From the IMG/VR virus record IMGVR_UViG_3300021440_000014, positions 96,001-160,000 of that record: 64,000 nucleotides of DNA; one strand, given 5' to 3'. This DNA comes from a virus. The translations under genes and the position numbers were made by a program. The notes below the pieces were generated by a model that was given only the letters and a program-made list of their open reading frames with translations, was not told the DNA's origin and made no database searches. Shown in pieces: positions 39,091 through 57,817 of this stretch. Numbering within the stretch: the first letter of the stretch is position 1; the number at the start of each line of letters is the position of its first letter.

Positions 39091-39150
39091 GATACTTTTG
39101 CGCTAGGTTTTATAATGAACTCCATTTAAGGAATTCGGCTGGACGTATCT
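39091..39150 (-). ncRNA. Y-RNA-like module 1
   Basis: AGATAC-GTC-CAGC ... GTATC. Confidence 0.55.
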
Positions 39151-39173
39151 TTACCTAAAACCGAAAGGGGAAA

Positions 39174-39365
39174 TTAAAACGCTTTACTGTATTTTCCTAA
39201 TACATCTTTATCTTCTGCATTTGGCGCAGCTAAAAAATCCGCCAAATCTCTCAAAAATTCTATCAACTCTTGATTATTTTCTGGAACCTTTTCTACTGAG
39301 AGGCCCATCATCATTTTACCATCTACAGTAAGTTCTATTCTTTTCGCATTTAATATTTTGTCCAT
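39174..39365 (-). CDS. hypothetical protein
   Basis: 63-aa ORF. Confidence 0.6.
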   Translation of the reverse strand: MDKILNAKRIELTVDGKMMMGLSVEKVPENNQELIEFLRDLADFLAAPNAEDKDVLGKYSKAF

Positions 39366-39367
39366 AA

Positions 39368-39655
39368 TTAATTTTCATCCAACCACGCTTTAACTACTTC
39401 TAAATGACAAGGCAAAGGAGAGCAGAAACAACCTAGTTTCTTACCTTTATAAGTTTTAAGCAGGCTGATAAAATCTGCGTCTCTCAAGAGAAAATAAAAC
39501 CATTCTCTATATCTCTCGATAACTTCTTCTCTTGTTCCGTCTCTGCCTATTACGTAGGGATTTCCTAGTATAGAGCCGCGCCCGCCATACTTATCGCAAG
39601 ACTCATTCCTAACATTAACTACTTTAGTTATTTCCTCTGTGTCCATAATTTTCAA
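39368..39655 (-). CDS. DUF4326 family protein
   Basis: GRGSxxGNP, G.REEVIxxY, LGCFCxPxxCH. Confidence 0.85.
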   Translation of the reverse strand: MKIMDTEEITKVVNVRNESCDKYGGRGSILGNPYVIGRDGTREEVIERYREWFYFLLRDADFISLLKTYKGKKLGCFCSPLPCHLEVVKAWLDEN

Positions 39656-40049
39656 GATAATATCTCACAGAAGGCATAAGTTTTAGTTTTAATGCTTCTT
39701 CTTTAGTAAAGAGTTTCCAGTCTGATTGTTTATCTGGCTCCCTATTTTCGACATTAGAATAATGATATTTATTATACTTCATTTCAAATATAAAACTTTT
39801 AATTTTTTTATCTTCGAATATGAAACAGTCAATAAAATTAAACTTTGCTCCCCACGGCTCCATTCCGCTTTCTTCCATTACCTCTCTAAAAGCCGCCTCA
39901 GATGGAATTTCTCCTTTTTCCATTTTCCCACCGGGATCTTGCCAATATCCTTTAAACGGGTCGCCTTCCTCAATTCTCTCAGAGAGAAGGACTAGATCAT
40001 CAAACCACATTATACAATGGACGACCTTTTTGTAATCGTTAGGATTCAT
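39624..40049 (-). CDS. Nudix hydrolase
   Basis: GGKMEKGEIPSEAAFREVMEESG Nudix box. Confidence 0.9.
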   Translation of the reverse strand: MNPNDYKKVVHCIMWFDDLVLLSERIEEGDPFKGYWQDPGGKMEKGEIPSEAAFREVMEESGMEPWGAKFNFIDCFIFEDKKIKSFIFEMKYNKYHYSNVENREPDKQSDWKLFTKEEALKLKLMPSVRYYLENYGHRGNN

Positions 40050-40543
40050 TTTTGTTTAAAATTTTGCTTAATAAAATTGTCAAGAATCTTGTCTGAAATT
40101 TTCTGATATGTATTCTTCACCAAATCAAATACTAATTCTACAAAATCATGAGAGAAATTCCACAGCAAACTATATGGCCAAAAAATTATCCATCCTGTTA
40201 TCTCAGATTTAATCCTTCCGGGTTCGAATAAGTATCTTACTTCATTTAACTCGTCTAGATTTTTAATTCTATGCTTGGTTATTTCTTGTTTTACCCACGC
40301 TCTCCAACGCCAAATTGACCAAACGACACCAATGATAAAGTAAAGAAATCCAAATATCAGATAATTCTTAATGTAAGTGGGCTTAAAATATTCCAAATTC
40401 GAAAGTAATAAGACAAACCCCACTACTGACGGGAAAAGGAAATATTGTTTTTCTGCGGCGAAAAATGCTAAAATGCTAAAAAGCAAAAATAACAACCAAA
40501 AACTAAACGACCATAATTCAAATAATCCAAAAATGTAACTCAT
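40046..40543 (-). CDS. hypothetical membrane protein
   Basis: Several TM helices, WIIFWPYS. Confidence 0.75.
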   Translation of the reverse strand: MSYIFGLFELWSFSFWLLFLLFSILAFFAAEKQYFLFPSVVGFVLLLSNLEYFKPTYIKNYLIFGFLYFIIGVVWSIWRWRAWVKQEITKHRIKNLDELNEVRYLFEPGRIKSEITGWIIFWPYSLLWNFSHDFVELVFDLVKNTYQKISDKILDNFIKQNFKQK

Positions 40544-40545
40544 AT

Positions 40546-41187
40546 TTAAGATGATACTCTCTTTTTAAGATTTGTCAAACTCTCTCTCTTTCCTGTATTT
40601 TTTAGGACGGTCAAATATCCGACTTGCTGCAAGGAATTTAAGTATCCCACATATTCTAAATAACCATACATACTCCAAAACAATGCCGAAGCTTTCTTTG
40701 CGTAAGATACTTGATCTTTAGGTTCTCCAAGTCTATAAAAACACAAATACTTCTGACTTTCTGGCAGAAGAAAATTTAATACAAATGATGCGTCTTTCTC
40801 GCACATTTTTTTATAAAATTCTGTCATTTCGTCGTAAAATTTTCTATCTACTTCAGAGCATCCTTTAAGACGCTCTTCTTTTATTTCGTCGGGCTGTATT
40901 TTTTGCGCGGCTGAATCTAAATCTTCTTGCTGCTTTTCTGTTAGTTTTTCTTTCATGGTTGTTCTTGTTACGTTTATTTGTAAATCAGCTAATTTAATTT
41001 GACTATTTCCTTCAGAGTTAAATAAGTAAGCATAACTGCAAATCTCTGAAAGGGCGTCTATAGTACAATGAGCACAAACAAAGTCATGCTCCTTAAAACC
41101 CATCTTACTCCATAACTCATCAGATGTCCATAAGAATATATTGGCTCCGCGCTCTTCCCCACATTTTTTACAATGAAAATTATCCAT
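40546..41187 (-). CDS. hypothetical protein with N-terminal CxxC...CxxC
   Basis: 213 aa from ATG at 41187 (upstream start overlaps a tRNA). Confidence 0.7.
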   Translation of the reverse strand: MDNFHCKKCGEERGANIFLWTSDELWSKMGFKEHDFVCAHCTIDALSEICSYAYLFNSEGNSQIKLADLQINVTRTTMKEKLTEKQQEDLDSAAQKIQPDEIKEERLKGCSEVDRKFYDEMTEFYKKMCEKDASFVLNFLLPESQKYLCFYRLGEPKDQVSYAKKASALFWSMYGYLEYVGYLNSLQQVGYLTVLKNTGKRESLTNLKKRVSS

Positions 41188-41196
41188 AAAAATTAG

Positions 41197-41268
41197 TGCC
41201 TCCAATCAGACTCGCACTGATATATTACGACTTATGAGATCGTCCCATTAACATTATGGTATAGAGGC
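41197..41268 (-). tRNA. tRNA CAT (Ile2 or Met)
   Basis: Cloverleaf, loop CT-CAT-AA. Confidence 0.75.
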
Positions 41269-41276
41269 TTCTATAA

Positions 41277-41855
41277 TCAATTTGGGTTAGTATGATGATC
41301 GTTTAATTCCGGTATAGAGCAATTAATAGGTTTAGCATCCATAATTGTCTTTATTTCCTCAAAAGAGTAAGGCTCGAAACTGTTTCCATCGACACCAACA
41401 TCTAAAATTTTACCTAAAACCTTACCTTCCTTGCGGACTCCCGCCATTCCATAGTGGCTGTGTCCGCACAAGCACCATGCGGAATGATGTTTTTTGTTCC
41501 ATGTAACTTGAGCATAATGGTTTAAAGTTATGTCTTGATCGTTAATTTTAATCTCATGATATCCTTTATGGGCTGAATAAAACTTATGACGATTCCTCCA
41601 AGTCAATTTATCATGATTGCCTGAGACTAAAACAATCAAACCGTTCAGTCTTTGAAAGAACATGTCAAACTCCATATCGTTTCTTCCAAAGACAAAATCC
41701 CCCAAAAAATATGCTAAATCTTGTTTACCTACTTTTTTATTCCATCTTTCTATAATTGCTTCATTCATTTCTACAACATTCTTGAAGGGACGGTTAGAAT
41801 AGCGCAAAATGTTACTATGATTAAAATGGAAATCCGAACTGAAAAACACTTTCAT
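41277..41855 (-). CDS. calcineurin-like phosphoesterase
   Basis: SDxHFxH, GDF, GNHD, HY, GHSH. Confidence 0.9.
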   Translation of the reverse strand: MKVFFSSDFHFNHSNILRYSNRPFKNVVEMNEAIIERWNKKVGKQDLAYFLGDFVFGRNDMEFDMFFQRLNGLIVLVSGNHDKLTWRNRHKFYSAHKGYHEIKINDQDITLNHYAQVTWNKKHHSAWCLCGHSHYGMAGVRKEGKVLGKILDVGVDGNSFEPYSFEEIKTIMDAKPINCSIPELNDHHTNPN

Positions 41856-41903
41856 ATATATAATTCCATCTTAACATATTTTTATTTTCTGTCAAAGAAA
41901 ATC

Positions 41904-42073
41904 AAGATACTTTCAATTTATACGGTATTTTATTCCTCCGCTCTATTTTTATGTCTTCACGACTCGCTATGACAGACGTTTTTATAGCGGGCATCGCCGC
42001 TCCCTTTTATCAGGTTTTGTTCGCCTTATTTGGCTTCATGTGTTAATTATGTTATTGCTGCTGTAAGTATCTT
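41904..42073 (-). ncRNA. Y-RNA-like module 2 (170 nt)
   Basis: AAGATACTT-A-CAGC ... AAGTATCTT; GTGTAA motif 8 nt upstream. Confidence 0.65.
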
Positions 42074-42093
42074 ACTCTTAATTACACTAAAAC

Positions 42094-42192
42094 TAGAAGC
42101 TGATTTACAGTTTACTCTGGGCACTTTTTGTGTGATTACCGTCACGATGAAGCCGGATTACCGGCGTTTATTTTTTTTGCTGTAAGCTTCTA
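42094..42192 (-). ncRNA. Y-RNA-like module 3
   Basis: TAGAAGC-TTA-CAGCAA ... GCTTCTA; two GGTAATC-containing hairpins. Confidence 0.7.
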
Positions 42193-42198
42193 AAAATC

Positions 42199-42273
42199 TG
42201 GAAGCACGTATCAGAATTGCACTGATCTATTCGATTTTGCAGATCGACGCCTAATCTACTCGGCCAACGCGCT
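42199..42273 (-). tRNA. tRNA-Cys(GCA)
   Basis: Cloverleaf, CT-GCA-AA, TCCA end. Confidence 0.85.
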
Positions 42274-42378
42274 ATTAAATTGGTGACTAATAAATCATTA
42301 TAGCTGCTACCACACCCCAATATTAAAGTGTTTTTGCCTTATTTAAAGTGTCCTACACTCACTATAACTTACTTAAGT

Positions 42379-42452
42379 TGGTATCCCTTGACGGTTTTGC
42401 GCCGTCGTCTCGGACTTGAGAGGCCCGCGATTTACTATTAATCTAAAGGGAC
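42379..42452 (-). tRNA. tRNA-Glu(CTC)
   Basis: Cloverleaf, CT-CTC-AA, ACCA. Confidence 0.85.
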
Positions 42453-42461
42453 ATTAAAATG

Positions 42462-42815
42462 TCAATTTTCCCAAAATTTGTTTTCGTAATTTTCCATCTC
42501 TTTTCTCCAATTCTGTTCGATTATAGCCATTTTATCGTCTAACTCTTTATTTCTTTTAACTATAATTTCAGGAGTTAGAGTTTTTGCGAATTTTACTGTT
42601 TCATTAAAATCTAAACTTAGATAAGGATGCATTGCATCACTAAGTCTAGGATCTCCTGTAAAGAAAATTCCACTTCTAAAGAGTGCCCATTTGTCTTTCT
42701 CTTTGAATTTATACTCTATACAGTAATATTTTGCATTGTAATGACTTACTCTTACTCTAAATTTATCTTGTATATTCTCTGGCTTTGCTTTGAATTTTTT
42801 AAAAAATTTGAACAT
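42462..42815 (-). CDS. hypothetical protein
   Basis: 117-aa ORF between tRNAs. Confidence 0.7.
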   Translation of the reverse strand: MFKFFKKFKAKPENIQDKFRVRVSHYNAKYYCIEYKFKEKDKWALFRSGIFFTGDPRLSDAMHPYLSLDFNETVKFAKTLTPEIIVKRNKELDDKMAIIEQNWRKEMENYENKFWEN

Positions 42816-42818
42816 AAA

Positions 42819-42893
42819 TGGTCAGGTGGGTCGGTTACGCTCCGACTCAATTTCATTCACAGTGAAAGAGGCTACTATTACATCACGCACTTG
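42819..42893 (-). tRNA. tRNA-His(GTG), irregular acceptor stem
   Basis: TTTCA-CTGTGAA-TGAAA arm, T arm, ACCA. Confidence 0.7.
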
Positions 42894-42896
42894 TTT

Positions 42897-43271
42897 TTAA
42901 TTATAAAACTCTACTTCAACCCCAAGCTTCTTAAAATTGTTCTTAATGGCTTTTTCTTTTTGTTCATCTGAGGTATTCTCGTTATCATTAATTTCCATTA
43001 AACGATTTGCAATTTTCGAATTTCCATTTAGACTGCACAGTTCAGGAAGCATATAAGCTTCGTTCTCTTTAACTAGGTCCGAAGGCTCGTATTTATTTTC
43101 AATATATTTTTTATTAATTCCTCGCGCCAATGAGTAAAACCCAAGGCAGCATTTCATACCTTTGCAGTCCAACAGTTCCGCTTCATAGCTAAAATCAGTA
43201 TGCTTACCTTTTTGGAAGCGCATCCACTCTTTACGGTTAATTCTAAATTTCTTAATTGGAGATTTTTTCAT
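42897..43271 (-). CDS. hypothetical protein
   Basis: 124 aa from ATG at 43271; CCLG, LMxIND. Confidence 0.65.
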   Translation of the reverse strand: MKKSPIKKFRINRKEWMRFQKGKHTDFSYEAELLDCKGMKCCLGFYSLARGINKKYIENKYEPSDLVKENEAYMLPELCSLNGNSKIANRLMEINDNENTSDEQKEKAIKNNFKKLGVEVEFYN

Positions 43272-43302
43272 ATAGTAGAGATTAACACATTTTTGAAGAA
43301 TG

Positions 43303-43560
43303 TCAATTCGATTCTCTATAGGGCGCAAACTGTAATTTGTTAGATTCAAATTTTAAATAATTAGAGTATTTTGAAATACCCAAATCAACAGTAACAGAAT
43401 TAAAAGTATTGGCAGTTTCTTTACTTTCTAAAACTTCCATTCTTTTTTCCATTTCCCTAATTAAAGCCTTATTTATCCAATTCATTTCTATTAAAATGTA
43501 GGTAGAAGAAGCAAAAACTAATAAAGCCATTAAACTTAATGAAGTTTCGTATTTTATCAT
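43303..43560 (-). CDS. hypothetical membrane-anchored protein
   Basis: 85 aa, upstream promoter. Confidence 0.6.
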   Translation of the reverse strand: MIKYETSLSLMALLVFASSTYILIEMNWINKALIREMEKRMEVLESKETANTFNSVTVDLGISKYSNYLKFESNKLQFAPYRESN

Positions 43561-43600
43561 ATTGACATTATCTATATTTTATCCATAAAGTCAATAAAAA

Positions 43601-43620
43601 ACGGCAGATTTCTCTGCCGT
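43601..43620 (-). terminator. intrinsic terminator
   Basis: ACGGCAGA/TCTGCCGT + T-run. Confidence 0.65.
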
Positions 43621-43644
43621 TCGCTAATATAATTGAATTTGCTA

Positions 43645-44313
43645 TTATCTAAATTTATAATCTACATTAATCGCAATATAATTATTTTTGCCTGTTACGT
43701 TTTGCGGCGTATTGTAATTAATAAATGGAGAATCACTATATCCAGTATAAGAAATAAATCTCATTCTTGGCGAAGCGGCAGTGTTTAAATGAGAGCCGGA
43801 ATGTAGAATTTTAGTTCCTATCTCGAAAAAGAGAGAATCTCCATCATTCGCCATTCCTGTTCCTACAATCCCATTAAAGTATTGTAGTCTATAGCCCTGA
43901 GAATCATATTTTGAAAAATGAGAGGTATCACTCTGATCGCCAGAATACAAAACTTTTCTTAAATTTCCGCTCTGGTCGCAAACTTTAATAACTAAAGAAT
44001 TACAGTGCCCGCTATTTATACCTGTTGGGCCTTTTGGAATGAAATATCCAGTAAAAATACCAGAATTCAAAAATTGAGAGCCGCTAAATACTTTATTGTA
44101 TTTAAATACTGATGCAATTATCCTTTTATTAATGTCCTGCCCTGTATTTACAGGATGAAAAATTAACCTCTCAACTCCCGTTGTCGTCGATGGACTTGAA
44201 TAGCAATCGTATTTTAAGTTTGCTCCACCTGTGTAATACCAAAAGCTGTTTGGCGCAGAATAATTTTCATTTCCGCTTATTAGATTTTCGGAAAAATATA
44301 TTTTAGTGCTCAT
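43645..44313 (-). CDS. hypothetical (possibly virion) protein
   Basis: 222 aa, Gly/Ser/Thr-rich, GTGTAT motif upstream. Confidence 0.7.
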   Translation of the reverse strand: MSTKIYFSENLISGNENYSAPNSFWYYTGGANLKYDCYSSPSTTTGVERLIFHPVNTGQDINKRIIASVFKYNKVFSGSQFLNSGIFTGYFIPKGPTGINSGHCNSLVIKVCDQSGNLRKVLYSGDQSDTSHFSKYDSQGYRLQYFNGIVGTGMANDGDSLFFEIGTKILHSGSHLNTAASPRMRFISYTGYSDSPFINYNTPQNVTGKNNYIAINVDYKFR

Positions 44314-44359
44314 ATCACTAATTAATACACTAACTCTTGAGTTTTATTCGTTTTTTTAA

Positions 44360-44434
44360 TGGCAGGCATGAAAGGACTTGCACCTTTTTATAATCGCTTC
44401 AGAGGCGATCCGATAACTATTCTCGCACATGCCA
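44360..44434 (-). tRNA. tRNA-Gln(CTG)
   Basis: ATCGC-CTCTGAA-GCGAT, GCCA. Confidence 0.8.
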
Positions 44435-44435
44435 A

Positions 44436-44687
44436 TCAAAAATTCTTCAAATAAGGTTTAATATGTTTTGGTGTTTTCTGGTTTATTAATTTAGGATTCG
44501 TTTCCAAAATTAACTTTTGCCCACTTTTAGTTTTCTTGAGCTTTTTAAGAATTACTTCTGCTGTTAAATCGCACCCATCAATATGGATTTTACTTCCCTT
44601 TCTGTCGCTCGGATCTAATAACTGCATTGTTCGGGCGGCTCTATACAATTGATTCATCGCCCAATTTAGTAATTCTTCGTCATTCAT
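44436..44687 (-). CDS. hypothetical protein
   Basis: 83-aa ORF. Confidence 0.6.
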   Translation of the reverse strand: MNDEELLNWAMNQLYRAARTMQLLDPSDRKGSKIHIDGCDLTAEVILKKLKKTKSGQKLILETNPKLINQKTPKHIKPYLKNF

Positions 44688-44704
44688 AATTCACCTCAAT
44701 ATAT

Positions 44705-44905
44705 TTAACACCAATCCGTTTTCCCTGTCAGCATATCCTTTAGTCTTTTCGCTGACTCTGCCGCGTCTTCTCTGGTTGGAATCCTTAGTCCAGCAAAGAT
44801 ACTTCCCTCTGGAAATGGCGTTAATCCTTCGTAAGGATTTTCTTCTGGAATATGAATCGGCTCCTTAGTAACCGAATCAATAAGTATTGTCTTATGTGTT
44901 TTCAT
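44705..44905 (-). CDS. hypothetical protein
   Basis: 66-aa ORF. Confidence 0.6.
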   Translation of the reverse strand: MKTHKTILIDSVTKEPIHIPEENPYEGLTPFPEGSIFAGLRIPTREDAAESAKRLKDMLTGKTDWC

Positions 44906-45134
44906 TTTTACTCTCTATTTTAACGCATTCGTATTTGTCTGTTAGTAAGCTAGTTATATTTGAAATTAACTCTGAGCGAACAACCCATTCATCAATTTCA
45001 ATTCCGCTAGGTGGGTTTTTTATAAAGTCTGCCTCAACAATCTGCGCAGCCTCAATAACAGAATCCGCCAAGATTCTATAATTCATTCTCTCTATCTTGC
45101 TTATATCTTTAGAACATATTTTATCTGTTTCCAC
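44892..45134 (-). CDS. hypothetical protein
   Basis: 80-aa ORF, start uncertain. Confidence 0.55.
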   Translation of the reverse strand: METDKICSKDISKIERMNYRILADSVIEAAQIVEADFIKNPPSGIEIDEWVVRSELISNITSLLTDKYECVKIESKNENT

Positions 45135-45179
45135 GATATATAACCCAAAACTTTTGCTATATTTATATTCTTTCGTAAA

Positions 45180-45668
45180 TCAAATACTATAATCTTCTCC
45201 TTTAAATTGGTAATCTTTAATAAACTCAACCACTGAAGGTTCCAGTTCTACTCTATGACATATAGGATAAGAATACTCTATATTATGAGATTTTACCCCA
45301 TTGAATACTAATTTTTTTCCCTTGTCATTAGTTTTCATGTATCTATAGATTTCGTTTATCCATCTTTTACATCTTTCGACTTTATCAGAAGAATTCGCAA
45401 ACTGAATCCAATTTTCCCCATGATTTACTCCATAACCCTCGGAAAGGCATTCAAACACTCCTTGTAAATACGCGATTTTCTTTTCAATCGTATCGAAAAA
45501 CTCTTCTTTGAGTTTACCAGTTATACGTCCTGCCGTAAATCCTTCTCGGCCCGGTGGACTCCAATTAAATATATCGTAGTAATCTGGCTTTTCTTTACTG
45601 TTATCATGGAAAGGAGTATCGTAAAAATCTCCCGCCTGAGCCGCTGATTTGATTGCTTTGACATTCAT
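45180..45668 (-). CDS. hypothetical protein
   Basis: 162-aa ORF. Confidence 0.7.
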   Translation of the reverse strand: MNVKAIKSAAQAGDFYDTPFHDNSKEKPDYYDIFNWSPPGREGFTAGRITGKLKEEFFDTIEKKIAYLQGVFECLSEGYGVNHGENWIQFANSSDKVERCKRWINEIYRYMKTNDKGKKLVFNGVKSHNIEYSYPICHRVELEPSVVEFIKDYQFKGEDYSI

Positions 45669-45687
45669 AAATTAGAAACACCCAACC

Positions 45688-45867
45688 TTAATCACGTTTA
45701 ATAAGGTAGTCAGTCATTTCTGCTTCGGTGGTGCGGCTGTTAGAGTCCCGTCCGGGGTAGTTGTTAAACTTAGTCTTCATTCTAAATATATCATATTGAA
45801 GAAAGCCAATTATTAGCCACATTATGATTAATAAAATTACTAATACTTTAAATTTTAGATCTTTCAT
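45688..45867 (-). CDS. small membrane protein (59 aa, not in ORF track)
   Basis: MKDLKFKVLVILLIIMWLIIGFLQY... read by hand. Confidence 0.5.
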   Translation of the reverse strand: MKDLKFKVLVILLIIMWLIIGFLQYDIFRMKTKFNNYPGRDSNSRTTEAEMTDYLIKRD

Positions 45868-45913
45868 GTTAAATTAATTACCAAACATTCGTCGCCGCAT
45901 ATTTTCTATATTG

Positions 45914-46129
45914 TTATTCAAGCGGTTGCGGTTTCTCGCATTCTTGTCCACCCTCAACAGGGGATTGTTTGGTAAAATTACTTTTTATTGCCTCCTCCCA
46001 AAAACAACAATAAAATTTATTTAAATCCTTTTTAAAAGGATCTCTATGGTTAATTATTCCCATGTCACATGCGTTTGTTCCGTTTTTGAAATAAACCCTA
46101 AACTTGCAATTAGTGCAATTCTTGTCCAT
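45914..46129 (-). CDS. hypothetical Cys-rich protein
   Basis: 71 aa, CxxC. Confidence 0.55.
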   Translation of the reverse strand: MDKNCTNCKFRVYFKNGTNACDMGIINHRDPFKKDLNKFYCCFWEEAIKSNFTKQSPVEGGQECEKPQPLE

Positions 46130-46170
46130 TAATTTAATATAGATTATATTTTATATATGTCAAGTTAAAT

Positions 46171-46251: not shown

Positions 46252-46320
46252 TTTGATCATTCGCCCTGCTCACACACGTAAACTTACAAACTGGCAATAC
46301 AGCTTAGGGCTACTAAAATG

Positions 46321-47347: not shown

Positions 47348-47351
47348 ATTT

Positions 47352-50684: not shown

Positions 50685-50798
50685 ATAAAAATTAATTGAG
50701 CACTAAAGCGAATACCCAAAAGGTCTAACTTTAGAATATTCAATTGGAGAGACTCGTCCTTCATTAGCCGCCGCCTTCGATGGGCACGTTGCTCAAAT

Positions 50799-50884
50799 TG
50801 GTAGCCGTAAAAGGACTTGCACCTTCAAGTATTAGAAGATTTTAAGTCTCCCGGTTCTTCGTTTCCCTTTCAATACATACGGCC
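50799..50884 (-). tRNA. non-canonical tRNA-Leu(TAA)
   Basis: CT-TAA-AA, ACCA; enlarged D region, short variable region. Confidence 0.7.
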
Positions 50885-50885
50885 A

Positions 50886-51092
50886 TTAAAGATCTAAAAG
50901 TTTCAAAGCTTTAAGAAGTAACTTACTTCCCTTTTTCTTTTTCTCTCTATCAGTCAGACTTTCTTTTAGTTTCGACTTAGGAAGATATTCGTCTCCAGCC
51001 CAATTATAAATTTTTGCCTTTTCCCAATTTGTAGCTTCTTCTTTTAATATTTCTATAACAATCTTTTTTATTTTAACTTCTAGTTGGTTCAT
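50886..51092 (-). CDS. hypothetical protein
   Basis: 68-aa ORF filling the gap between tRNAs. Confidence 0.55.
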   Translation of the reverse strand: MNQLEVKIKKIVIEILKEEATNWEKAKIYNWAGDEYLPKSKLKESLTDREKKKKGSKLLLKALKLLDL

Positions 51093-51096
51093 AAAA

Positions 51097-51180
51097 TGGT
51101 CGCCATGACAGGAATCGCACCTGCAAAACTTCAGTTTTTGAAACTGGATGCTGTCCTATTCGCAATTAAGTCACATGGCG
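51097..51180 (-). tRNA. non-canonical tRNA-Leu(CAA)
   Basis: TT-CAA-AA, ACCA; same architecture as Leu(TAA). Confidence 0.7.
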
Positions 51181-51187
51181 TTTTAAA

Positions 51188-51262
51188 TGGTAGGGTTAGC
51201 CGGATCTGCCCCGCGCCTCTATAGGATGAAAGCCTATTATGCTTCTACTGCACCATAACCCC
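51188..51262 (-). tRNA. tRNA-Glu(TTC)
   Basis: ATAGG-CTTTCAT-CCTAT, ACCA. Confidence 0.8.
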
Positions 51263-51270
51263 TGAAAAAC

Positions 51271-51390
51271 TAGATACATTTTTTTGCTTGTCGGACGTTT
51301 TGCCACTAAACTACCCACGTCAATGACGTGGACACGAATCGAACGTGCGCTTTCCGATTGGATTTGCTTTTTGTCTGCTGGATGTATCTA
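51271..51390 (-). ncRNA. YrlA-like Y RNA (module 5) with circularly permuted tRNA-like domain
   Basis: TAGATACAT/ATGTATCTA stem + CAGC; TCGGA/TCCGA; T arm TTCGATT; closed acceptor hairpin; D arm GTTT-AGTGGCA-AAAC. Confidence 0.8.
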
Positions 51391-51394
51391 AAAA

Positions 51395-51469
51395 TGGTAG
51401 CCCGTGAAGGAATCGCACCCTCTCTTCTTCCTTGTAAGGGAAGCTCGCTCCTGTTACAATCAACGGGCT
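51395..51469 (-). tRNA. tRNA-Val(TAC)
   Basis: CTTCC-CTTACAA-GGAAG, ACCA. Confidence 0.85.
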
Positions 51470-51474
51470 ATAAA

Positions 51475-51549
51475 TGGTCAGCACGAAAGGTAACGCTCCT
51501 TCTTGAACTTGATCCCAAATCAAGTGCCTCACTTTTAGGCTACGTGCTG
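51475..51549 (-). tRNA. tRNA-Pro(TGG)
   Basis: CTTGA-TTTGGGA-TCAAG, ACCA. Confidence 0.85.
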
Positions 51550-51694
51550 TATAAAGTTTCAGGTCTTTCCTTGTGTCAATCATCATCGGGTTGGTTTCCA
51601 ACTTACGGAGCGATTTGCCGCTAGATGTTCTAAATTATTAGAGTATGCAGCGATTATGCTATCATACCCTTCTAAGAGTTTTTATTACTCAAGA

Positions 51695-51766
51695 TGGTGG
51701 ACCTGTCGGATACTGCCTCCGAACGAAAATCTTGCAAGGATTCCCTTATGCCTTCATAACAAGCCC
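51695..51766 (-). tRNA. tRNA-Ala(TGC)
   Basis: G3-U70, CT-TGC-AA, ACCA. Confidence 0.8.
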
Positions 51767-51771
51767 ATAAA

Positions 51772-51984
51772 TTACTTATAACTATTTCCCAACTTCTCCC
51801 TCCAATTTTCATTATAATTTTGATGCGCTTCACATTGAGCTTTTGCTTGCTCTAAAGTGATAGCTGGCTGTTTTTTGACAGCCTCCATTGTATCAATTAA
51901 CCATTTAGGAGGAGGAGGAATCCTATTCATTAACTCTTTAAATCTTCTAAGATGTTTTCTTTTTCTTTTTTCGAAATTGATCAT
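51772..51984 (-). CDS. hypothetical protein
   Basis: 70-aa ORF. Confidence 0.55.
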   Translation of the reverse strand: MINFEKRKRKHLRRFKELMNRIPPPPKWLIDTMEAVKKQPAITLEQAKAQCEAHQNYNENWREKLGNSYK

Positions 51985-52074
51985 AAATTGTGGACTGGAA
52001 GGATACCCTAAATCCTTATTCTAGGCTTCGTAGGATTACTACGTCCTCGCTTTGGTGCAGCCCCATAAAAATTC

Positions 52075-52160
52075 GTTGGATTTCACTTTCGATGGCTCAA
52101 TTGATTTCGCGTTACTCCCGCGCACCATCTGCGTTCCCTGTAGCTCTCAGGTCTATCAAC
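52075..52160 (-). ncRNA. AUAGAC...GUGAAAUC motif RNA, copy 3
   Basis: GTTG-ATAGACC...GGGAAC...GTGAAATC-CAAC (covaried closing stem). Confidence 0.55.
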
Positions 52161-52180
52161 AAGAACAAAACCTACTTCGT

Positions 52181-52249
52181 CAACAAATTGGATTTGCGCC
52201 AACTTCCTCGGCGTTTGCCGATGCTTTACTACATAAGCTATTTATGTTG
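52181..52249 (-). ncRNA. tRNA-like RNA lacking an anticodon (4-nt loop)
   Basis: D arm GCTT/AAGC, TCGGC-AAAC-GCCGA, T arm GTTGG-CGCAAAT-CCAAT. Confidence 0.55.
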
Positions 52250-52341
52250 CCTTCTGTTTTTATTCTCTAAAATTGGTGGACCTTATCGCCGCCCTTGCGT
52301 CCGAATTTCACGGAGTCTCCCCGAAGGAAGTCCTTATTAAA

Positions 52342-52432
52342 TGGCGGAAGCATAGAGAATTGCACTCCAACCGGCTTTTGACCGGACAATTTTAGCAAAA
52401 TTGCGTAACAATCTAATATTTACCTTACTTCC
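52342..52432 (-). tRNA. tRNA-Ser(GCT)
   Basis: TT-GCT-AA, long variable arm, GCCA. Confidence 0.85.
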
Positions 52433-52442
52433 AATTAAATAA

Positions 52443-52529
52443 TGGAGCCAACGACAGGTATCGCGCCTGCATACACCTTTCGGTTCTCGCTTTACAAAAG
52501 CGGTGAATTACTTGTCTATCCACGTTGGC
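52443..52529 (-). tRNA. tRNA-Thr(TGT) with long variable arm
   Basis: GCCAACG/CGTTGGC-TCCA, TT-TGT-AA, ACC-GAAA-GGT extra arm. Confidence 0.75.
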
Positions 52530-52536
52530 ATCAAAT

Positions 52537-52618
52537 TGGTGCTCCAACCCCGACTTGCACAGGGACGCTTTCGCACGAAGTTCTAAGCTTCGCATGTCTT
52601 CTATTTCATCATTGGAGC
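52537..52618 (-). tRNA. tRNA-Leu(TAG)
   Basis: CGAAG-CTTAGAA-CTTCG, ACCA. Confidence 0.85.
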
Positions 52619-52625
52619 TAAAAAT

Positions 52626-52698
52626 TGGTTGCGGTCGCGAGAATTAAACTCGTCCTTAAGCTTATGAAACTTACGTGCAATCATTACACTTCCCCGCA
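52626..52698 (-). tRNA. tRNA CAT (fMet-like acceptor)
   Basis: TGCGG/CCGCA-ACCA, TT-CAT-AA. Confidence 0.7.
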
Positions 52699-52713
52699 TT
52701 TTAAAATTAAAGC

Positions 52714-52775
52714 TAGATAGTTGGGATTTTCAATTCCCTATTTTGTGAAAATAAATTTTATACTGCACCTATCTA
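52714..52775 (-). ncRNA. Y-RNA-like module 6
   Basis: TAGATAG-GTG-CAGT ... CTATCTA. Confidence 0.65.
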
Positions 52776-52788
52776 AACTATGAAAACC

Positions 52789-52846
52789 TAGATCCATTTT
52801 TTGTCATTTGAATAATGAGTTTTTTAATTTTTGCTGTTCGGATCTA
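52789..52846 (-). ncRNA. Y-RNA-like module 7
   Basis: TAGATCC-GAA-CAGCAA ... GGATCTA. Confidence 0.7.
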
Positions 52847-52851
52847 TAAAA

Positions 52852-52926
52852 TGGCCCGACAAGTTGGTAACGCTCCAACCTCCACTGTTCTTCAGACAGT
52901 TGCTAATCTATCTCAGCTATTGGCGG
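52852..52926 (-). tRNA. tRNA-Phe(GAA)
   Basis: ACTGT-CTGAAGA-ACAGT, GCCA. Confidence 0.8.
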
Positions 52927-52930
52927 AAAA

Positions 52931-53005
52931 TGGAGCACACGGAGGATTTTGAAACCTCGACGTTCACGTTGGAAGCGTGACATTCTGCCTCTGAATTACG
53001 TGTGC
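52931..53005 (-). tRNA. tRNA-Gly(TCC)
   Basis: Cloverleaf, CT-TCC-AA, TCCA. Confidence 0.9.
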
Positions 53006-53015
53006 TTAAATTGAC

Positions 53016-53065
53016 TAGATACGCTTTTTTCCATAAACAAGGATTTTGACTGCTGCACGTATCTA
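53016..53065 (-). ncRNA. Y-RNA-like module 8
   Basis: TAGATAC-GTG-CAGC ... GTATCTA. Confidence 0.7.
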
Positions 53066-53075
53066 AAAACTTTTC

Positions 53076-53444
53076 TTAAATATTTTTTGGCGTTCTGTGT
53101 GATAGTGTAAAAAAAGCTTTTCTCACCAAGCCTTCCCTTACTTCTACTTCACAAGTTCCAATAAACTCATAAGATTTATAACCTGATTGCGAAGATCCGT
53201 CAATATCTAAAAACGTCCCTTTCGCATAAATTTTTGTTAAACCTGTTTTTTTAGGATTTACAGTTACATTATAATTTGAACCATCAAAATTTGACGATAG
53301 TATTTCTATTACTTCTTCGTCTTCTACTGTCCAAATGGCATTCTCATTTTCATTAATGAAAACTATATCGTTTTCGGCTGTCATGAATTTTACTTGCAAA
53401 ACTGCCGTTTCATCCTTGGCGATTGTAAACTTTTGAATATCCAT
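53076..53444 (-). CDS. Ig-like domain protein (possible virion decoration)
   Basis: WTVEDxxV...V.PKKTG.T.I.A...C.V.V; GTGTAA motif upstream. Confidence 0.6.
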   Translation of the reverse strand: MDIQKFTIAKDETAVLQVKFMTAENDIVFINENENAIWTVEDEEVIEILSSNFDGSNYNVTVNPKKTGLTKIYAKGTFLDIDGSSQSGYKSYEFIGTCEVEVREGLVRKAFFTLSHRTPKNI

Positions 53445-53468
53445 GTAATATATTACACTTTAAATAAC

Positions 53469-53526
53469 TAGATACTTATTTTTCCTTTAACAGAGGAGTT
53501 TTTTTATTTTTTGCTGTTCGTATCTA
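53469..53526 (-). ncRNA. Y-RNA-like module 9 carrying an Asn anticodon stem-loop
   Basis: TAGATAC-GAA-CAGCAA ... TCCT-CTGTTAA-AGGA ... GTATCTA. Confidence 0.7.
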
Positions 53527-53529
53527 AAA

Positions 53530-53606
53530 TGGCACGGCGAACGAGAGTCGAACTCGTCTATTGCTGGTTTGGAATCAGTTGCTTCACTCTACTTAGCTAT
53601 CGCCGT
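53530..53606 (-). tRNA. tRNA-Trp(CCA)
   Basis: TT-CCA-AA, T loop TTCGACT, GCCA. Confidence 0.85.
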
Positions 53607-53613
53607 ATAAAAT

Positions 53614-53688
53614 TGGAGCGGGTAGCGGAATTTGCGTCCGCTTTGAAAAATTGGCAATTTCTCGTAATACTACATATACCATACCCGC
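53614..53688 (-). tRNA. tRNA-Gly(GCC)
   Basis: GCGGGTA/TACCCGC-TCCA, TT-GCC-AA. Confidence 0.85.
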
Positions 53689-53884
53689 ATAAAATCAAAT
53701 AAATTAAATGGAGATAAAAACCTCAACATCTATCCTTATGGATTAGGGTTTTTTAACCTTCGTTGGTAGCATTCTTATTCCTAAGATTACCGGCGTCTCC
53801 GCTTCCCTACGGCTCGCCTCTACGGTTTTGATAACGCTCAAAATTTCTAAAAGCAAAATTTAAACTCGTTCTTACTACTCTTCC

Positions 53885-53912
53885 ATCTTACCAAGTTTTT
53901 CGTTTTTGTCAA
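53885..53912 (-). promoter_or_regulatory. sigma70-type promoter heading the tRNA/ncRNA cluster
   Basis: TTGACA-N16-TAAGAT. Confidence 0.65.
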
Positions 53913-53933
53913 CTCTCTATTTTTCCAACAAAA

Positions 53934-53962
53934 AACCGCCCTTCTTTTCAGAAAAGGCGGTT
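53934..53962 (-). terminator. intrinsic terminator
   Basis: AACCGCC/GGCGGTT + T-run. Confidence 0.65.
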
Positions 53963-54203
53963 AATTCCCCACGAATTTCCCACCCTCCCTAGCAAAAATC
54001 TCCATTTGTCGCTTGGAGGCGACTTGCTTTAACGGACGGTTCTGAAACCCAATATCTCATATCTCTAATAGAATATACACTCTATTTTAAAAAATGTCAA
54101 ATATTTTTAAAACTTTCTTCTAAATTCGCTCTACCTTTATCAAGATATAGCAAAAAGGGGCAGTTTTTAGCTGCCTCCCGTTAATTATTTATTGTTTTCT
54201 AGA

Positions 54204-55205
54204 TTATTTCATTAAAATAAACTTTGTTCCAGCGATAAGCTTTCTATTCGTTGACGTAGACTGTAGAAAGATATCATATTTATTGTTTGTGGCGGGATCT
54301 ACTTGAACTTCATGATCTGGTAATCCAAGCAATTGTCTTGCTTCCGCGCCCGCATAAACCTTGCCATTAAGTTTGTCCTGTAAGCAAACCTGCTTATATC
54401 CTTGAACCTTTTCTTTCTTTGTCAATTGATAGAATCCGCTTCCAATTCTATAGGTTTCTTTTGGATTCCAGCTTTCAACGAAATCCTTGATAGGCTTGTC
54501 CTTATGAACAGAGTAAACACTATAATCGCTAGGATTAAGCTCTACAAGAGTAGATTTAACCGTGCTACTATTTAACGCCGCTGTATCAAGTTGGAAAAGA
54601 TTTTTCGTAGATCTTAATCCTTTTGATCTAGAAGTCATAAAAGTGGACGTAACCGTATTTATTTTTTTGCTTGCCTCTTCCAGACCTCTAGAAGAAGTCT
54701 CCCAAATTTGAATGTTTCCAACTGGAAAACCAAATTTTTTACATTCGTGAACTCCATTTTGGTTTGGAACTAAAACAGCCACAGTGTAGTTCTCTGGAAG
54801 TGAATTAATCGTCTCTTTCAGCTTTTTAGCTAAATGGCTATTGATGTTATTCTCTCCATCGGTTTGAACTATAATTAAATTGCTATGATCTCCATATAAT
54901 TCGGGATTCTTTTTAAGATCCTCTATAGACTTATAGACTGCATCAATTAATGCAGTCATCCCCCTTGGCTCATAGTGATCTTTTATACTAGGCAGTCTGC
55001 ATACATCTTGATCGTATAACAAACACTTTACTGAATCAGAGAAAACGTAAATAGAAACTCTTGTTTCTTGATCTAATTCTATAGATCTTTGCTTAAGGTG
55101 TTCTATTTGTCTGTCAAATGCTAAAATAGTTTCTTTTTTAAAAATCGACATAGAAGAACTTGCATCTAACACGAAAGAGATATGGTTTATATATTTTTGT
55201 ATCAT
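54204..55205 (-). CDS. von Willebrand A (vWA) domain protein
   Basis: VLDASSSM (MIDAS DxSxS), GMTALIDA, TDGENN. Confidence 0.85.
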   Translation of the reverse strand: MIQKYINHISFVLDASSSMSIFKKETILAFDRQIEHLKQRSIELDQETRVSIYVFSDSVKCLLYDQDVCRLPSIKDHYEPRGMTALIDAVYKSIEDLKKNPELYGDHSNLIIVQTDGENNINSHLAKKLKETINSLPENYTVAVLVPNQNGVHECKKFGFPVGNIQIWETSSRGLEEASKKINTVTSTFMTSRSKGLRSTKNLFQLDTAALNSSTVKSTLVELNPSDYSVYSVHKDKPIKDFVESWNPKETYRIGSGFYQLTKKEKVQGYKQVCLQDKLNGKVYAGAEARQLLGLPDHEVQVDPATNNKYDIFLQSTSTNRKLIAGTKFILMK

Positions 55206-55287
55206 ATATATATAATATAATCTGTTCTTTTTGAAAAATCAAGCAAATATCGTCAATCCTTCTAATTATGTGTAATATAATATTGAA

Positions 55288-56247
55288 ATGAAAAAAGAAA
55301 AAATATGTAAAAAATGCAATAATAATTTTATTATTAATTTCAAAATAAATGACAAAAATATATGTCTCTCTAACCGAAGTTTTTGCTTATTATGTAAACC
55401 TAAAAGACAAAAAATATCGAAAGATGCTATAGAAAATATAATAAAAGAATATAATTTAATTGGAGCAGAAGAATGCCAAAAGAAATTTAAAATATCAAAA
55501 AATCAAATTACATATATTGCTTCTAAATATAAATTAAAATTAAATCCAAAAACTCATAGTAAAATAAAATCTAAAAGTAAAATAGAGATAGATCCTTTTA
55601 AATACAAAGTTAATCATCTTTCATTCAGTAATATAAATAATTCAATATGCGCTTATATATTAGGGCTAATTTGGACAGATGGACATATTAATTCAAGAAA
55701 TAACTCGATTATATTTTCAACCACATATCCTGATTCCGAATATTTTTCTAAAGAATTCTTAAAAACAGGTTCATGGAACATTTATAGATATAAGTCTAAT
55801 AAAAATCACAAAGATAAAATATCAATAATAACTACTAATAAATTCCTAAAAGAAACATTAGTATCTTTGGGTTTTTTAGAAAAAATAAAAGGGTTAGAAA
55901 AAGTTTATGAACATATACCAGAAAATCTAAAACATTATTTTATTCGGGGGCTAATAGATGGAGACGGATGCTTTTATGTTAATAAAAAGAAATCGATTTA
56001 TCGTTTTTCTCTATGCTCCTGTTTAAATCAAAACTGGAACTGCATACAAAAACTACTAGATTCACTTAGCATAAAGTATAAAATAGAAAACTCTACTACA
56101 AAAAATGGATCTTATAGCAAAATACATATTAGTGGCATACCTAATGTAAAAAAATTTGGCGACTTCGTTTATAGAAATCGCCAAGATGACTTTATTGGAT
56201 TAGATCGTAAATATAAAAAATATTTAGAAGTTCAATTTAAAACCTAA
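55288..56247 (+). CDS. LAGLIDADG homing endonuclease (two motifs)
   Basis: YILGLIWTDG and FIRGLIDGDG, C-terminal LDRK. Confidence 0.85.
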   Translation: MKKEKICKKCNNNFIINFKINDKNICLSNRSFCLLCKPKRQKISKDAIENIIKEYNLIGAEECQKKFKISKNQITYIASKYKLKLNPKTHSKIKSKSKIEIDPFKYKVNHLSFSNINNSICAYILGLIWTDGHINSRNNSIIFSTTYPDSEYFSKEFLKTGSWNIYRYKSNKNHKDKISIITTNKFLKETLVSLGFLEKIKGLEKVYEHIPENLKHYFIRGLIDGDGCFYVNKKKSIYRFSLCSCLNQNWNCIQKLLDSLSIKYKIENSTTKNGSYSKIHISGIPNVKKFGDFVYRNRQDDFIGLDRKYKKYLEVQFKT

Positions 56248-57817
56248 CATTCGCATATCTCTCCGAAGAAAGGATCTTAACCATTTCGTCGTAAGGATTC
56301 GTGATTTTTCCGCCAAGAATGAACTTTATAGTGCTTGGCGAACTTCCGCTGACAAGCATCACTCCGTCCTCATTCATCTTAGCAGGACTATTATCTTCTC
56401 TCGCGTTAAGATTCCAGAAGATTATTTCTGGCATTTTATACTTCGCGGCCTTATATTTAGACTTAATAACCTCAAGGTTAGTAAGCTTATTAGACTTGCA
56501 AGCTGTATTGAATTCCATGTCAGAAAAGACAATAAGCTTCTTAGGCATATCGGACTGCTTCACTTTTCTTGCTTTGGCGGACTCAAGAATTAACTCAAAT
56601 GCCGCTTGCAAATTAGTGCTTCCACCCCAAGATGCTTTTCTGATATTATTAATCTTTTCGTATACTGTGCTTCCGTTAACAGTCTGCAATTTAGGACTCT
56701 CTTCAAAGGTTATAAACCAATTTTTGAATGGACCGTTATTTCTTTCTGAAACGTAAAGACCCAATCCAATTGAAGAATACATAGGAGGAACACTTGCTCC
56801 ACCGCTTAACATCGAGCTTGACACGTCAATCAATGGAATCATTGAACACTCACTTCCCTCAAAGAAATCAGGCAAATTATTCCACATAACATCAACTGAT
56901 GAAGTTGCATCTCCACTTAGAACGCTTCTAACTATGTCGTAAGGATAAAGTCCAGAAGTATTGATTTTAACTTCTCCCTTAGCCGCCTTATCTAAGAAGG
57001 CTGCATATCTCTCGTTGTCATTACGAGCAAAAGCCTTTCTATAAAGAAAACCGGCTCTGGAAGGAATCTTATCGTAACTAATAGAACTCCAGTCCTTTTT
57101 GCACATGGCCTGCTCTACAAGAGAAATTTTCTTTCTGAGAAAAGACAAAATCCTACGATAGTTTCTCTCTGAAAGACTCATGAAAGAGGCAAACTTTAGC
57201 CCCATCTTTCGGCTCTCAAGCGAAGAGGCATTGGTCGAAGGCATCCATTTGGCAATAAGCGATGGATTCTCACTGCTGAGATCCGCGTGAAGCTTGTTGT
57301 TGATAAATGTCATCATCTGCTTCTCACACTGCGTTCCAACTAACTCAAAGAGATCGTCAGTTCTTCCATAAAAAAGAATATTCTCAAAGTTGGCTGTAAC
57401 CACATTAGGATAGTTGGAGGCAAGCCATCTTAGGCAAGTTCTAAATGTCTTTCTTTCGCCTTGCCCGCCACGTATATCTCTAATATAAAAAAGAGCCTTC
57501 ATAGCAAGGTCGCTATTTTCGAACAATGCCTTTTTAAAGGCGTCCACAACTACGGCTTCAGTTTGAGATCTAAACGCTCCAGCCTTGGAAAAGAAATCCA
57601 AGACCTTATCTCCAGTAGACTTGTTAGTAAGTGCTCCATTAGCAGTAAAAACCTTAGCCTTGGAAGTATCCTCTAAAACCATCGCTTTGAGCAATGGATT
57701 AATATTACTAGAAGGTAGTGCGTTGGCTTTGAAAGAAGCTTGGCTTACGCTCTTTGAGTCTGAAACCTTCTTCTTCGCCTTTGGTAGCTTATTTAACTGT
57801 TCGTTAATGTTTTTCAT
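56237..57817 (-). CDS. DUF2828-family protein (Ro60/TROVE-like helical domain + vWA)
   Basis: TxNGA..STG..LDFF, RDIRGGQGER, AKWMP, IDVSSSM, WGGSTNL, FSDMEF, IFWNL, VSG.S. Confidence 0.85.
   Translation of the reverse strand: MKNINEQLNKLPKAKKKVSDSKSVSQASFKANALPSSNINPLLKAMVLEDTSKAKVFTANGALTNKSTGDKVLDFFSKAGAFRSQTEAVVVDAFKKALFENSDLAMKALFYIRDIRGGQGERKTFRTCLRWLASNYPNVVTANFENILFYGRTDDLFELVGTQCEKQMMTFINNKLHADLSSENPSLIAKWMPSTNASSLESRKMGLKFASFMSLSERNYRRILSFLRKKISLVEQAMCKKDWSSISYDKIPSRAGFLYRKAFARNDNERYAAFLDKAAKGEVKINTSGLYPYDIVRSVLSGDATSSVDVMWNNLPDFFEGSECSMIPLIDVSSSMLSGGASVPPMYSSIGLGLYVSERNNGPFKNWFITFEESPKLQTVNGSTVYEKINNIRKASWGGSTNLQAAFELILESAKARKVKQSDMPKKLIVFSDMEFNTACKSNKLTNLEVIKSKYKAAKYKMPEIIFWNLNAREDNSPAKMNEDGVMLVSGSSPSTIKFILGGKITNPYDEMVKILSSERYANVRF

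Follow-up and report, generated by a model that had tools for sequence, protein, structure and literature searches.

A viral genome probably encodes a divergent Ro60/Y-RNA-type ribonucleoprotein that combines a DUF2828 protein with a family of handle RNAs

Analysis of a 64,000-nt stretch of viral DNA (bases 96001-160000 of the 172,010-bp IMG/VR record IMGVR_UViG_3300021440_000014; hereafter the window, in whose coordinates all positions are given) suggested that it encodes a divergent ribonucleoprotein (RNP) of the Ro60/Y-RNA type, in which a DUF2828 protein would have a set of small RNAs as its cognate partners, a reading that we consider likely. Ro60/Rsr is a ring, formed by a TROVE and a vWA domain, that binds the 5'/3' terminal stem of Y RNAs. 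The small RNAs found here, which we call handle RNAs, share a handle made of a covarying 7-bp terminal stem, a single-stranded CAGCAA and an unpaired 3' G, and within this handle they carry a variable interior. The original prediction for this locus was of a new RNP system. We prefer to see it as a branch that has diverged within the known Ro60/Y-RNA system, the Ro60 likeness of DUF2828 proteins being already on record in phage annotation and in the part of the PhageMaP preprint on phage Bas63 available to us (PMC11482910). The RNA side of this branch and its handle are apparently undescribed.

The nine elements from which the prediction started have the sequences described for them. All lie on the minus strand and begin (N)AGAnnn-nnn-CAG with CAG at a fixed offset, and their terminal stems include AGATAC/GTATCT, AGAAGC/GCTTCT, AGATAG/CTATCT and AGATCC/GGATCT. 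A strict scan for NAGANNN-NNN-CAG[CT], followed after 30-230 nt by its exact reverse complement over 7 nt, found seven sites in the whole 172-kb genome, every one of them on the minus strand and already among the nine, whereas 50 first-order shuffles averaged 1.0 and never exceeded 3. The simpler 5' pattern had 18 occurrences in the window, where 7.1 were expected (maximum 14 in 100 shuffles), and eight of the 18 belong to the nine elements. A relaxed stem search of the whole genome, allowing 6/7 pairs, was dropped as too noisy. An unpaired G directly 3' of the stem, a feature absent from the earlier description, was present in eight of the nine elements. A covariance model, R1, built from 31 short elements of other viral contigs from IMG/VR loci (alignment A2) and from none in the window, recovered six of the nine with filters off, each on the minus strand at E≤0.001, and found no copy in the rest of the genome outside the window. 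Not all nine elements stood equally: seven belong solidly to a single RNA family, one (46425-46475) is probably a diverged member, and the membership of the other weak copy (39091-39150) is doubtful.

The covariation of the stem was examined in 80 IMG/VR loci encoding relatives of the window DUF2828 protein, where R1 gave 71 matches (E≤0.01) in 41 loci, 40 of the 71 being non-seed. RNAalifold predicts the 7-bp stem of R1 unaided. Across the 71 matches, 99.3% of stem cells pair, versus 27-42% when the partner column is slid, and double changes occur at all seven pairs, bearing out the covarying stems of the original prediction. The 40 non-seed matches alone contain 23 distinct stems, in which 274 of 277 stem cells pair and even the AGA/UCU core is swapped with compensation (CGA/UCG, GGA/UCC, AGG/CCU, UGA/UCA); all 40 have the unpaired G past the stem. 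In a closure test that assumed no stem, 49 out of 124 gene-strand 5' handles had an exact reverse complement downstream, compared to 3, 3 and 0 closures for three control words, and a G directly followed the closure in 48 of the 49, while 11 5' handles on the opposite strand showed no closure. Base identities in the stem are largely free except for a G-C third pair, and the conserved, unpaired CAGCAA stands 2-3 bases past the stem on its 5' side. Rfam 15 held no family matching the elements, a relaxed-threshold Rfam search of 38500-54200 gave nothing on them besides a weak YrlA match, and a search of Creative Commons papers in PubMed Central and of bioRxiv yielded no description of the CAGCAA handle; the same literature listed nothing on phage for DUF2828, and two later gene-essentiality preprints make no mention of Ro60.

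Genomic linkage of the handle RNAs to the DUF2828 gene was found in both directions. Starting from the gene, R1 matches in the IMG/VR loci lay on the gene strand in 71 cases and on the opposite strand in none, and for most copies the distance to the gene was no more than a few hundred bases. A second sample of 80 DUF2828 loci, taken from a prokaryote genome collection and consisting mostly of contigs of metagenome-assembled genomes with a few isolates (e.g. Enterococcus, Thermoactinomyces and Mycolicibacterium), gave 41 of 41 matches on the gene strand, so that across about 160 loci from two collections the matches were exclusively co-oriented with the gene; 12 of 12 were likewise in phages Tsamsa, A511, Miley16 and PC5. 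Simpler descriptions of the element retained the bias in the IMG/VR loci, with 52 gene-strand versus 5 opposite-strand sites for the strict pattern, 165 versus 15 for the 5' handle alone, and, for a looser pattern, 56 of 80 loci with one or more gene-strand elements versus 8 of 80 with any on the opposite strand. Starting from the RNA, we searched IMG/VR with a single stem variant (AGACAC...CAGCAA...GTGTCT), which yielded at least 121 stretches, 80 of which were taken with their flanks. A DUF2828 relative lay within 10 kb, always on the same strand, in 51 of these 80, or in 43 of 71 groups when counted non-redundantly. Ten contigs without DUF2828 nearby included seven that carry it elsewhere, among them all six that are at least 90% complete, and the three that lack it altogether are 35-70% complete. 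In contrast, a scrambled control pattern found 16 stretches in the entire collection, none of the 16 with DUF2828.

As the original prediction stated, the DUF2828 gene (56237-57817, minus strand) and a second vWA gene (54204-55205, minus strand) lie upstream of the RNA cluster and on its strand. The 526-aa DUF2828 protein matches the Pfam families DUF7788 (4.2e-52) and DUF2828 (9.8e-35) as well as PHROG 850, labelled 'RNA-binding protein' (1.5e-138). Its AlphaFold (AF2) model, made with a 36-sequence alignment, had a predicted local distance difference test score of 85.8 and a predicted template modelling (TM) score of 0.83, and the best 12 Foldseek matches listed for it were all Ro60/Rsr/TROVE proteins, including the Ro60 of Thermus phage phiLo (E 3.3e-9, TM 0.58). 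The match to Ro60 structures spans the whole length of the model, and VIA-align superposed 414 of its residues on Ro60 (2i91_A) with Z 23.7 and a root mean square deviation of 3.9, compared to Z 11.3 for the best vWA-only chain and Z 13.9 for phiLo Ro60 (9l5y). The MIDAS (metal ion-dependent adhesion site) motif of vWA domains is DxSxS...T...D, and the corresponding residues D331, S333, S335, T401 and D433 are invariant in the 36 homologues, forming a complete MIDAS-type set. As modelled, then, the protein is a Ro60-like helical-repeat ring with a vWA domain, so that the predicted relationship to Ro60 held at the level of the fold and found no counterpart in sequence. The 333-aa product of the second vWA gene (PHROG 26613, function unknown) was considered as a partner and rejected, since its relatives occur in only three of 167 related loci, and it looks like a lineage-specific neighbour.

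Individual handle RNAs in the window, all on the minus strand, differ mainly in what the stem encloses. Four are of a short class. The element at 53469-53526 (R1 53 bits, E 1.4e-8; exact 7-bp closure and 3' G) lies 3 nt past tRNA-Trp and has an interior hairpin, UCCU-CUGUUAA-AGGA, resembling the anticodon stem-loop of tRNA-Asn (GUU). That at 53016-53065 (43.9 bits, E 1e-6) contains a small hairpin with an 8-nt loop and stands 10 nt ahead of tRNA-Gly; that at 52789-52846 (48.1 bits, E 1.4e-7) has a 5-bp hairpin flanked by A-rich linkers; and that at 52714-52775 (30.2 bits, E 7e-4; exact closure and 3' G) has CAGU in place of CAGC. The long-class element at 51271-51390 (29.6 bits, E 9e-4), flanked by tRNA genes on both sides, holds the permuted tRNA domain that the original prediction had recognized: its interior aligns to the whole Rfam YrlA model, with T arm, closed acceptor stem-loop and D arm (51263-51370, minus strand, model positions 1-114), at 22.9 bits relative to a gathering score of 69. 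YrlA did not match the other eight elements at E≤5, nor eight related loci at the gathering score. The element at 42094-42192 (33.1 bits, E 1.8e-4), 6 nt past tRNA-Cys, has an interior of two to three small hairpins, and that at 41904-42073 combines an exact handle, 7-bp closure and 3' G with a multi-hairpin interior of about 150 nt; R1 matches this 170-nt element only in part (E 7) because of the long insert. The probable diverged member at 46425-46475, 8 nt past a tRNA-like match, keeps the 3' G but departs from the others by a single A.C mismatch within its stem and by CAGU, and scored 15 bits (E 0.94, 46421-46479). The doubtful one at 39091-39150 has the 5' handle, CAGCC and a 5-bp closure, is without the 3' G and was not among R1 matches at E≤10; a hairpin with a G+C-rich stem follows it.

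Most of the 305 distinct elements collected across the loci measure 50-70 nt, a second group measures 80-140 nt, and two main kinds of interior are found. One is a YrlA-like tRNA elbow, with a T-arm-like hairpin in 35 of 86 elements of 80-140 nt. The other mimics the anticodon stem-loop, with a 5-bp stem and a CU-NNN-AA loop in which GUU or UUU predominates. Among the short elements (185 of ≤80 nt), interior loops of 7 nt made up 53 of 160 hairpins versus 48 of 637 after shuffling, and the 53 loops carried the anticodon-loop signature (C32 in 36, U33 in 39, A37 in 42 and A38 in 40); 7-nt loops were again found in 15 of 45 cases in the genome-collection loci. A 5-bp stem with a YU-NNN-RA loop was observed 49 times in 269 distinct elements of up to 140 nt, compared to 1.65 expected from shuffles and a single occurrence of the reversed signature, and the density of such hairpins was 3.4 per kb in the elements versus 0.38 per kb in the surrounding tRNA-rich loci. 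The 'anticodons' of 46 distinct hairpins included GUU nine times (on nine stems), UUU seven times (on seven stems), and UGU and GUA three times each, GUU and UUU together being overrepresented relative to the anticodons of the 1,458 tRNAs that these loci contain (binomial p 3e-7). The varied tRNA-mimicking cargo of the original prediction holds across the family; in the window, only the interiors of 51271-51390 and 53469-53526 are recognizable as such.

Comparison with known systems revealed both likenesses to and differences from Ro60 RNPs of bacteria. In bacterial loci with Ro60/Rsr and YrlA/YrlB (Chen et al. 2014, PMC4201824, in the portion of the paper considered here; RF02553), as in the DUF2828 loci, a gene for a ring with a vWA domain adjoins same-strand RNAs with paired ends, several RNA genes may occur per locus, and one RNA class has a permuted tRNA-like domain while a second, shorter class does not. 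More generally, the handle RNAs resemble Y RNAs in that their ends pair into a stem and that they lie near, and co-oriented with, a Ro-type gene. In contrast, the DUF2828 protein has no sequence-detectable TROVE domain, and the handle RNAs have CAGCAA and the 3' G instead of GNCGAAN0-1G; moreover, the one YrlA-like copy in the window falls below the gathering score of that family, and the many short handle RNAs with anticodon-loop look-alikes are unlike YrlB as described in the accessible text of Chen et al. (PMC4201824).

Phages are also known to encode Ro60 proteins of the TROVE type with adjacent Y-like RNAs, for which a counter-defence role has been proposed. These include Thermus phage phiLo, with Yrl1/Yrl2 (PMC12135203, as far as the part of that paper at hand goes), as well as cluster C1 mycobacteriophages, CcrColossus (three Y-like RNAs) and phage G (Chen 2014 Table S2, PMC4201824). 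The 22 phages of that table all have TROVE-type proteins, of 469-552 aa, and it omits the Felix O1-like phages, KVP40, A511, Tsamsa and Miley16 (PMC4201824). Unlike the DUF2828 systems, these have RNAs with a CGAA-type motif and proteins annotated as TROVE, and R1, run on the TROVE-type Ro loci that ET08 and CcrColossus carry, had no match at E≤10. Small RNAs inside a phage tRNA cluster are likewise found in T4, where rnaC and rnaD (species 1 and 2) are annotated as stable and of unknown function; unlike the RNAs described here, they show no handle, E 2.1 being the best that R1 reached in the T4 tRNA/rnaC/rnaD region. In Staphylococcus phage K, the part of a transcriptome study available to us reports two abundant long non-coding RNAs adjoining tRNA genes (PMC9241854).

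Relatives of the DUF2828 protein were found in 704 of 50,697 phage records, with 691 covering at least 80% of the protein, including Felix O1-like phages, KVP40, A511, Tsamsa-like and Campylobacter phages and the mycobacteriophages Miley16 and LeBron. They are annotated as 'hypothetical' or 'RNA-binding', the label 'Ro-like RNA binding protein' also being present. In the genome collection, DUF2828 genes occur, in addition, on contigs binned as Promethearchaeota, Pacearchaeota, Heimdallarchaeota and Methanobrevibacter (our loci L231, L232, L305, L306 and L285), with handle RNAs beside the gene in L231 and L305; these contigs may be archaeal viruses or binning errors. In six of seven cultured-phage loci (KVP40, VpaE1, A511, Tsamsa, PC5 and Bas63), DUF2828 adjoins a co-oriented tRNA cluster, the exception being Miley16, with no tRNA gene annotated within 9.4 kb. 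R1 found five copies in Tsamsa, three in A511, two in Miley16 and two weak ones in PC5. Four copies in VpaE1, four in Bas63 and two in KVP40 have a handle shifted by 1 nt, the helix being one pair longer ahead of CAGCAA; those of KVP40 and VpaE1 were missed by R1 at E≤1 and were found by eye and with the looser pattern. In KVP40 (L086, about 5920-5965), both the start codon and the ribosome-binding site of the DUF2828 gene lie inside a handle-like hairpin with a 6-bp stem, UUA-CAGCAA and then A-G, an arrangement by which the protein could repress its own translation.

In Bas63, gp130 is the orthologue of the window protein (38.5% identity, E 6e-90). The available part of the PhageMaP preprint describes gp130 as Ro60-like by structure and located upstream of tRNA genes, reports that its deletion sensitizes Bas63 to the ppl defence, and gives the authors' guess that some Bas63 'tRNA genes' might be Y RNAs, without defining an RNA partner in that part of the text (PMC11482910). 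We found four handle RNAs in Bas63 (our locus L213, 5212-5278, 5379-5436, 5834-5901 and 5921-6046), all in gaps between annotated tRNA genes and none among the annotated tRNAs. The first of them (L213 5212-5278) has the same 5-bp interior stem, UCUGA/UCGGA, as the first handle RNA of the closely related VpaE1 (L087 7713-7779), while the 7-nt loops on this stem differ (CACGAAA in Bas63, AGGUAAA in VpaE1), suggesting that the displayed loop may be under diversifying selection.

In the window, the handle RNAs lie in and about a minus-strand tRNA cluster at about 41.2-53.7 kb, in which ARAGORN called 10 tRNAs and Rfam 12 at the gathering score, with further sub-threshold tRNA-like matches at a relaxed threshold; none of the nine elements was called a tRNA by ARAGORN or by the Rfam tRNA model. 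Consensus matches on the minus strand to two promoters (TTGACA-17-TATATT at 54100-54072 and TTGACA-16-TAAGAT at 53912-53885), and to a terminator hairpin after the vWA gene (53962-53934), suggest that the tRNA/handle-RNA cluster probably starts its own transcript at about 53.9-54.1 kb. We propose that the handle RNAs of this phage would be transcribed within the tRNA polycistron and released, probably, by the enzymes that trim the flanking tRNAs. By analogy with Ro60 on the terminal stem of Y RNAs, the DUF2828 protein would then bind the handle, and the conserved single-stranded CAGCAA and 3' G do point to a sequence-specific reader. Each RNA so bound would display its module, be it a YrlA-like tRNA elbow, a mimic of an anticodon stem-loop (in most cases Asn GUU or Lys UUU) or a small hairpin of some other type, and the module might tether, trap or divert host proteins that recognize tRNA, giving the RNP a role in counter-defence or in RNA metabolism.

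A bolder proposal, which we regard as possible yet on balance doubtful, is that the DUF2828 RNP is a widespread, programmable decoy or trap for tRNA-reading host enzymes, with swappable modules copying both ends of the tRNA, the elbow and the anticodon stem-loop. The likeliest targets of such a decoy would be the anticodon nucleases of anti-phage defence, and the Ro-like ring could either keep the decoy stable or link an enzyme caught by it to RNA decay. If true, this would explain how Bas63 gp130 counters a defence system and why the DUF2828 gene travels with phage tRNA clusters; the anticodon-loop look-alikes themselves suggest a direct link to tRNA-targeting immunity. The protein gains a predicted RNA partner that is concrete, searchable and has a defined recognition handle, unannotated RNA genes are located in model and therapeutic phages, such as the four in Bas63, and Ro/Y-type RNPs would have a second, sequence-divergent lineage with a handle of its own.

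Several observations weigh against a Ro60/Y-RNA-type RNP. The GNCGAAN0-1G or CGAA motif carried by bacterial and phage Y RNAs (PMC4201824 and PMC12135203, in the parts consulted) is missing, GNCGAAN0-1G occurring in none of the nine window elements, 31 seeds or 71 R1 matches, which means that the binding mode is not simply transferable from Ro60. None of the sequence methods ties DUF2828 to TROVE: a Pfam scan (E≤0.01) of the window protein gave DUF7788, DUF2828 and VWA_2 and no TROVE, phmmer and the 36-sequence profile found no Ro60 among PDB sequences, and hhalign aligned the phage TROVE proteins ET08 gp220 and CcrColossus gp139 over the vWA/MIDAS region only, at 73% and 40% probability. In the window itself, 2.7-18 kb separate the gene from the RNAs, the gene and the RNAs are probably on separate transcripts, and no RNA run is among the public sequencing runs carrying the stretch. 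Neither R1 nor the looser pattern found an element in 12 of the 80 IMG/VR DUF2828 loci, and many interiors have no recognizable tRNA mimicry. Finally, elements from related contigs are not independent, so that the element counts overstate the number of evolutionary events, and a first covariation count, on alignment A2, was discarded as circular because its seeds came from strict regular-expression searches and had been picked for exact closure.

Other explanations of the elements account for part of these data. They could be signals that act in cis on the processing or stability of tRNA operons and DUF2828 mRNA (sites for RNase E, P or Z or for exonucleases), linked to the gene only by shared transcription units, as might be expected from elements whose distance to neighbouring tRNA genes, 3-20 nt, equals that between tRNAs, and from the position of DUF2828 beside tRNA clusters in most of the cultured phages. 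We find this unlikely, since the Miley16 elements adjoin DUF2828 far from any annotated tRNA gene, the T4 tRNA cluster is free of them, genomes with the RNA pattern carry DUF2828 even when it is distant on the contig, and CAGCAA and the 3' G point to a sequence-specific reader. Alternatively, the handle could be mainly an autoregulatory operator in the DUF2828 leader, the other copies being by-products or titrators. Many elements do sit just upstream of DUF2828, at 18-89 nt in A511, Tsamsa and PC5, and the KVP40 hairpin covers its translation start, yet elements of the window, the Felix O1-like phages and Miley16 lie either downstream of DUF2828 or at a distance from it, and variable tRNA-like modules would be superfluous in an operator, making this a quite unlikely main function. 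Operator activity would also need binding of the protein to the handle and thus supplements a Ro-like RNP rather than replacing it.

A further idea, that the short elements represent 'armless' tRNAs of minimal size or what is left of tRNA genes, acting in translation or decaying, is suggested by their 7-bp terminal stem with one conserved, discriminator-like unpaired G and by the 5-bp/7-nt anticodon-like hairpins with a CU-NNN-AA loop. We hold this to be very improbable: the elements encode no CCA and draw no tRNA call, CAGCAA has no tRNA counterpart, most members lack an anticodon-like loop, and the linkage to DUF2828 would be left unexplained. Repeats acting at the DNA level, in recombination, homing or as promoter sites, might be entertained given two homing endonuclease genes in the region, a LAGLIDADG gene between the DUF2828 and vWA genes (55288-56247, plus strand, overlapping the DUF2828 3' end by 11 nt) and an HNH gene inside the tRNA cluster (49578-50342, minus strand). 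Such repeats would not call for compensatory changes that preserve pairing while the sequence varies, nor for a strict strand bias of 71:0, 41:0 and 12:0, and chance is contradicted by the shuffle and scrambled-pattern controls, so that we give either hardly any credence. The preferred reading remains a DUF2828 RNP of the Ro60/Y-RNA type.

The viral record containing the window has a CheckV completeness of 100% and a G+C content of 35%, and a freshwater metagenome is the best holder of its DNA among public sequencing runs. Megablast of 50000-58000 against phage records gave no match. Neighbouring open reading frames include no RNA-repair genes, only a phosphoesterase, a NUDIX hydrolase, a DUF4326 protein and the HNH endonuclease. 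Just past the tRNA cluster is a full-length transfer-messenger RNA gene (36600-37038, minus strand; Rfam 99.5 bits), and genes of this type also occur near DUF2828 in the IMG/VR loci L004 and L010. In L010, the DUF2828 gene is followed by three Rfam tRNA matches of 113-118 nt (10274-10386, 10535-10648 and 10651-10768), about 40 nt over the normal length, which could be intron-containing tRNAs or composites of a tRNA and a handle RNA.

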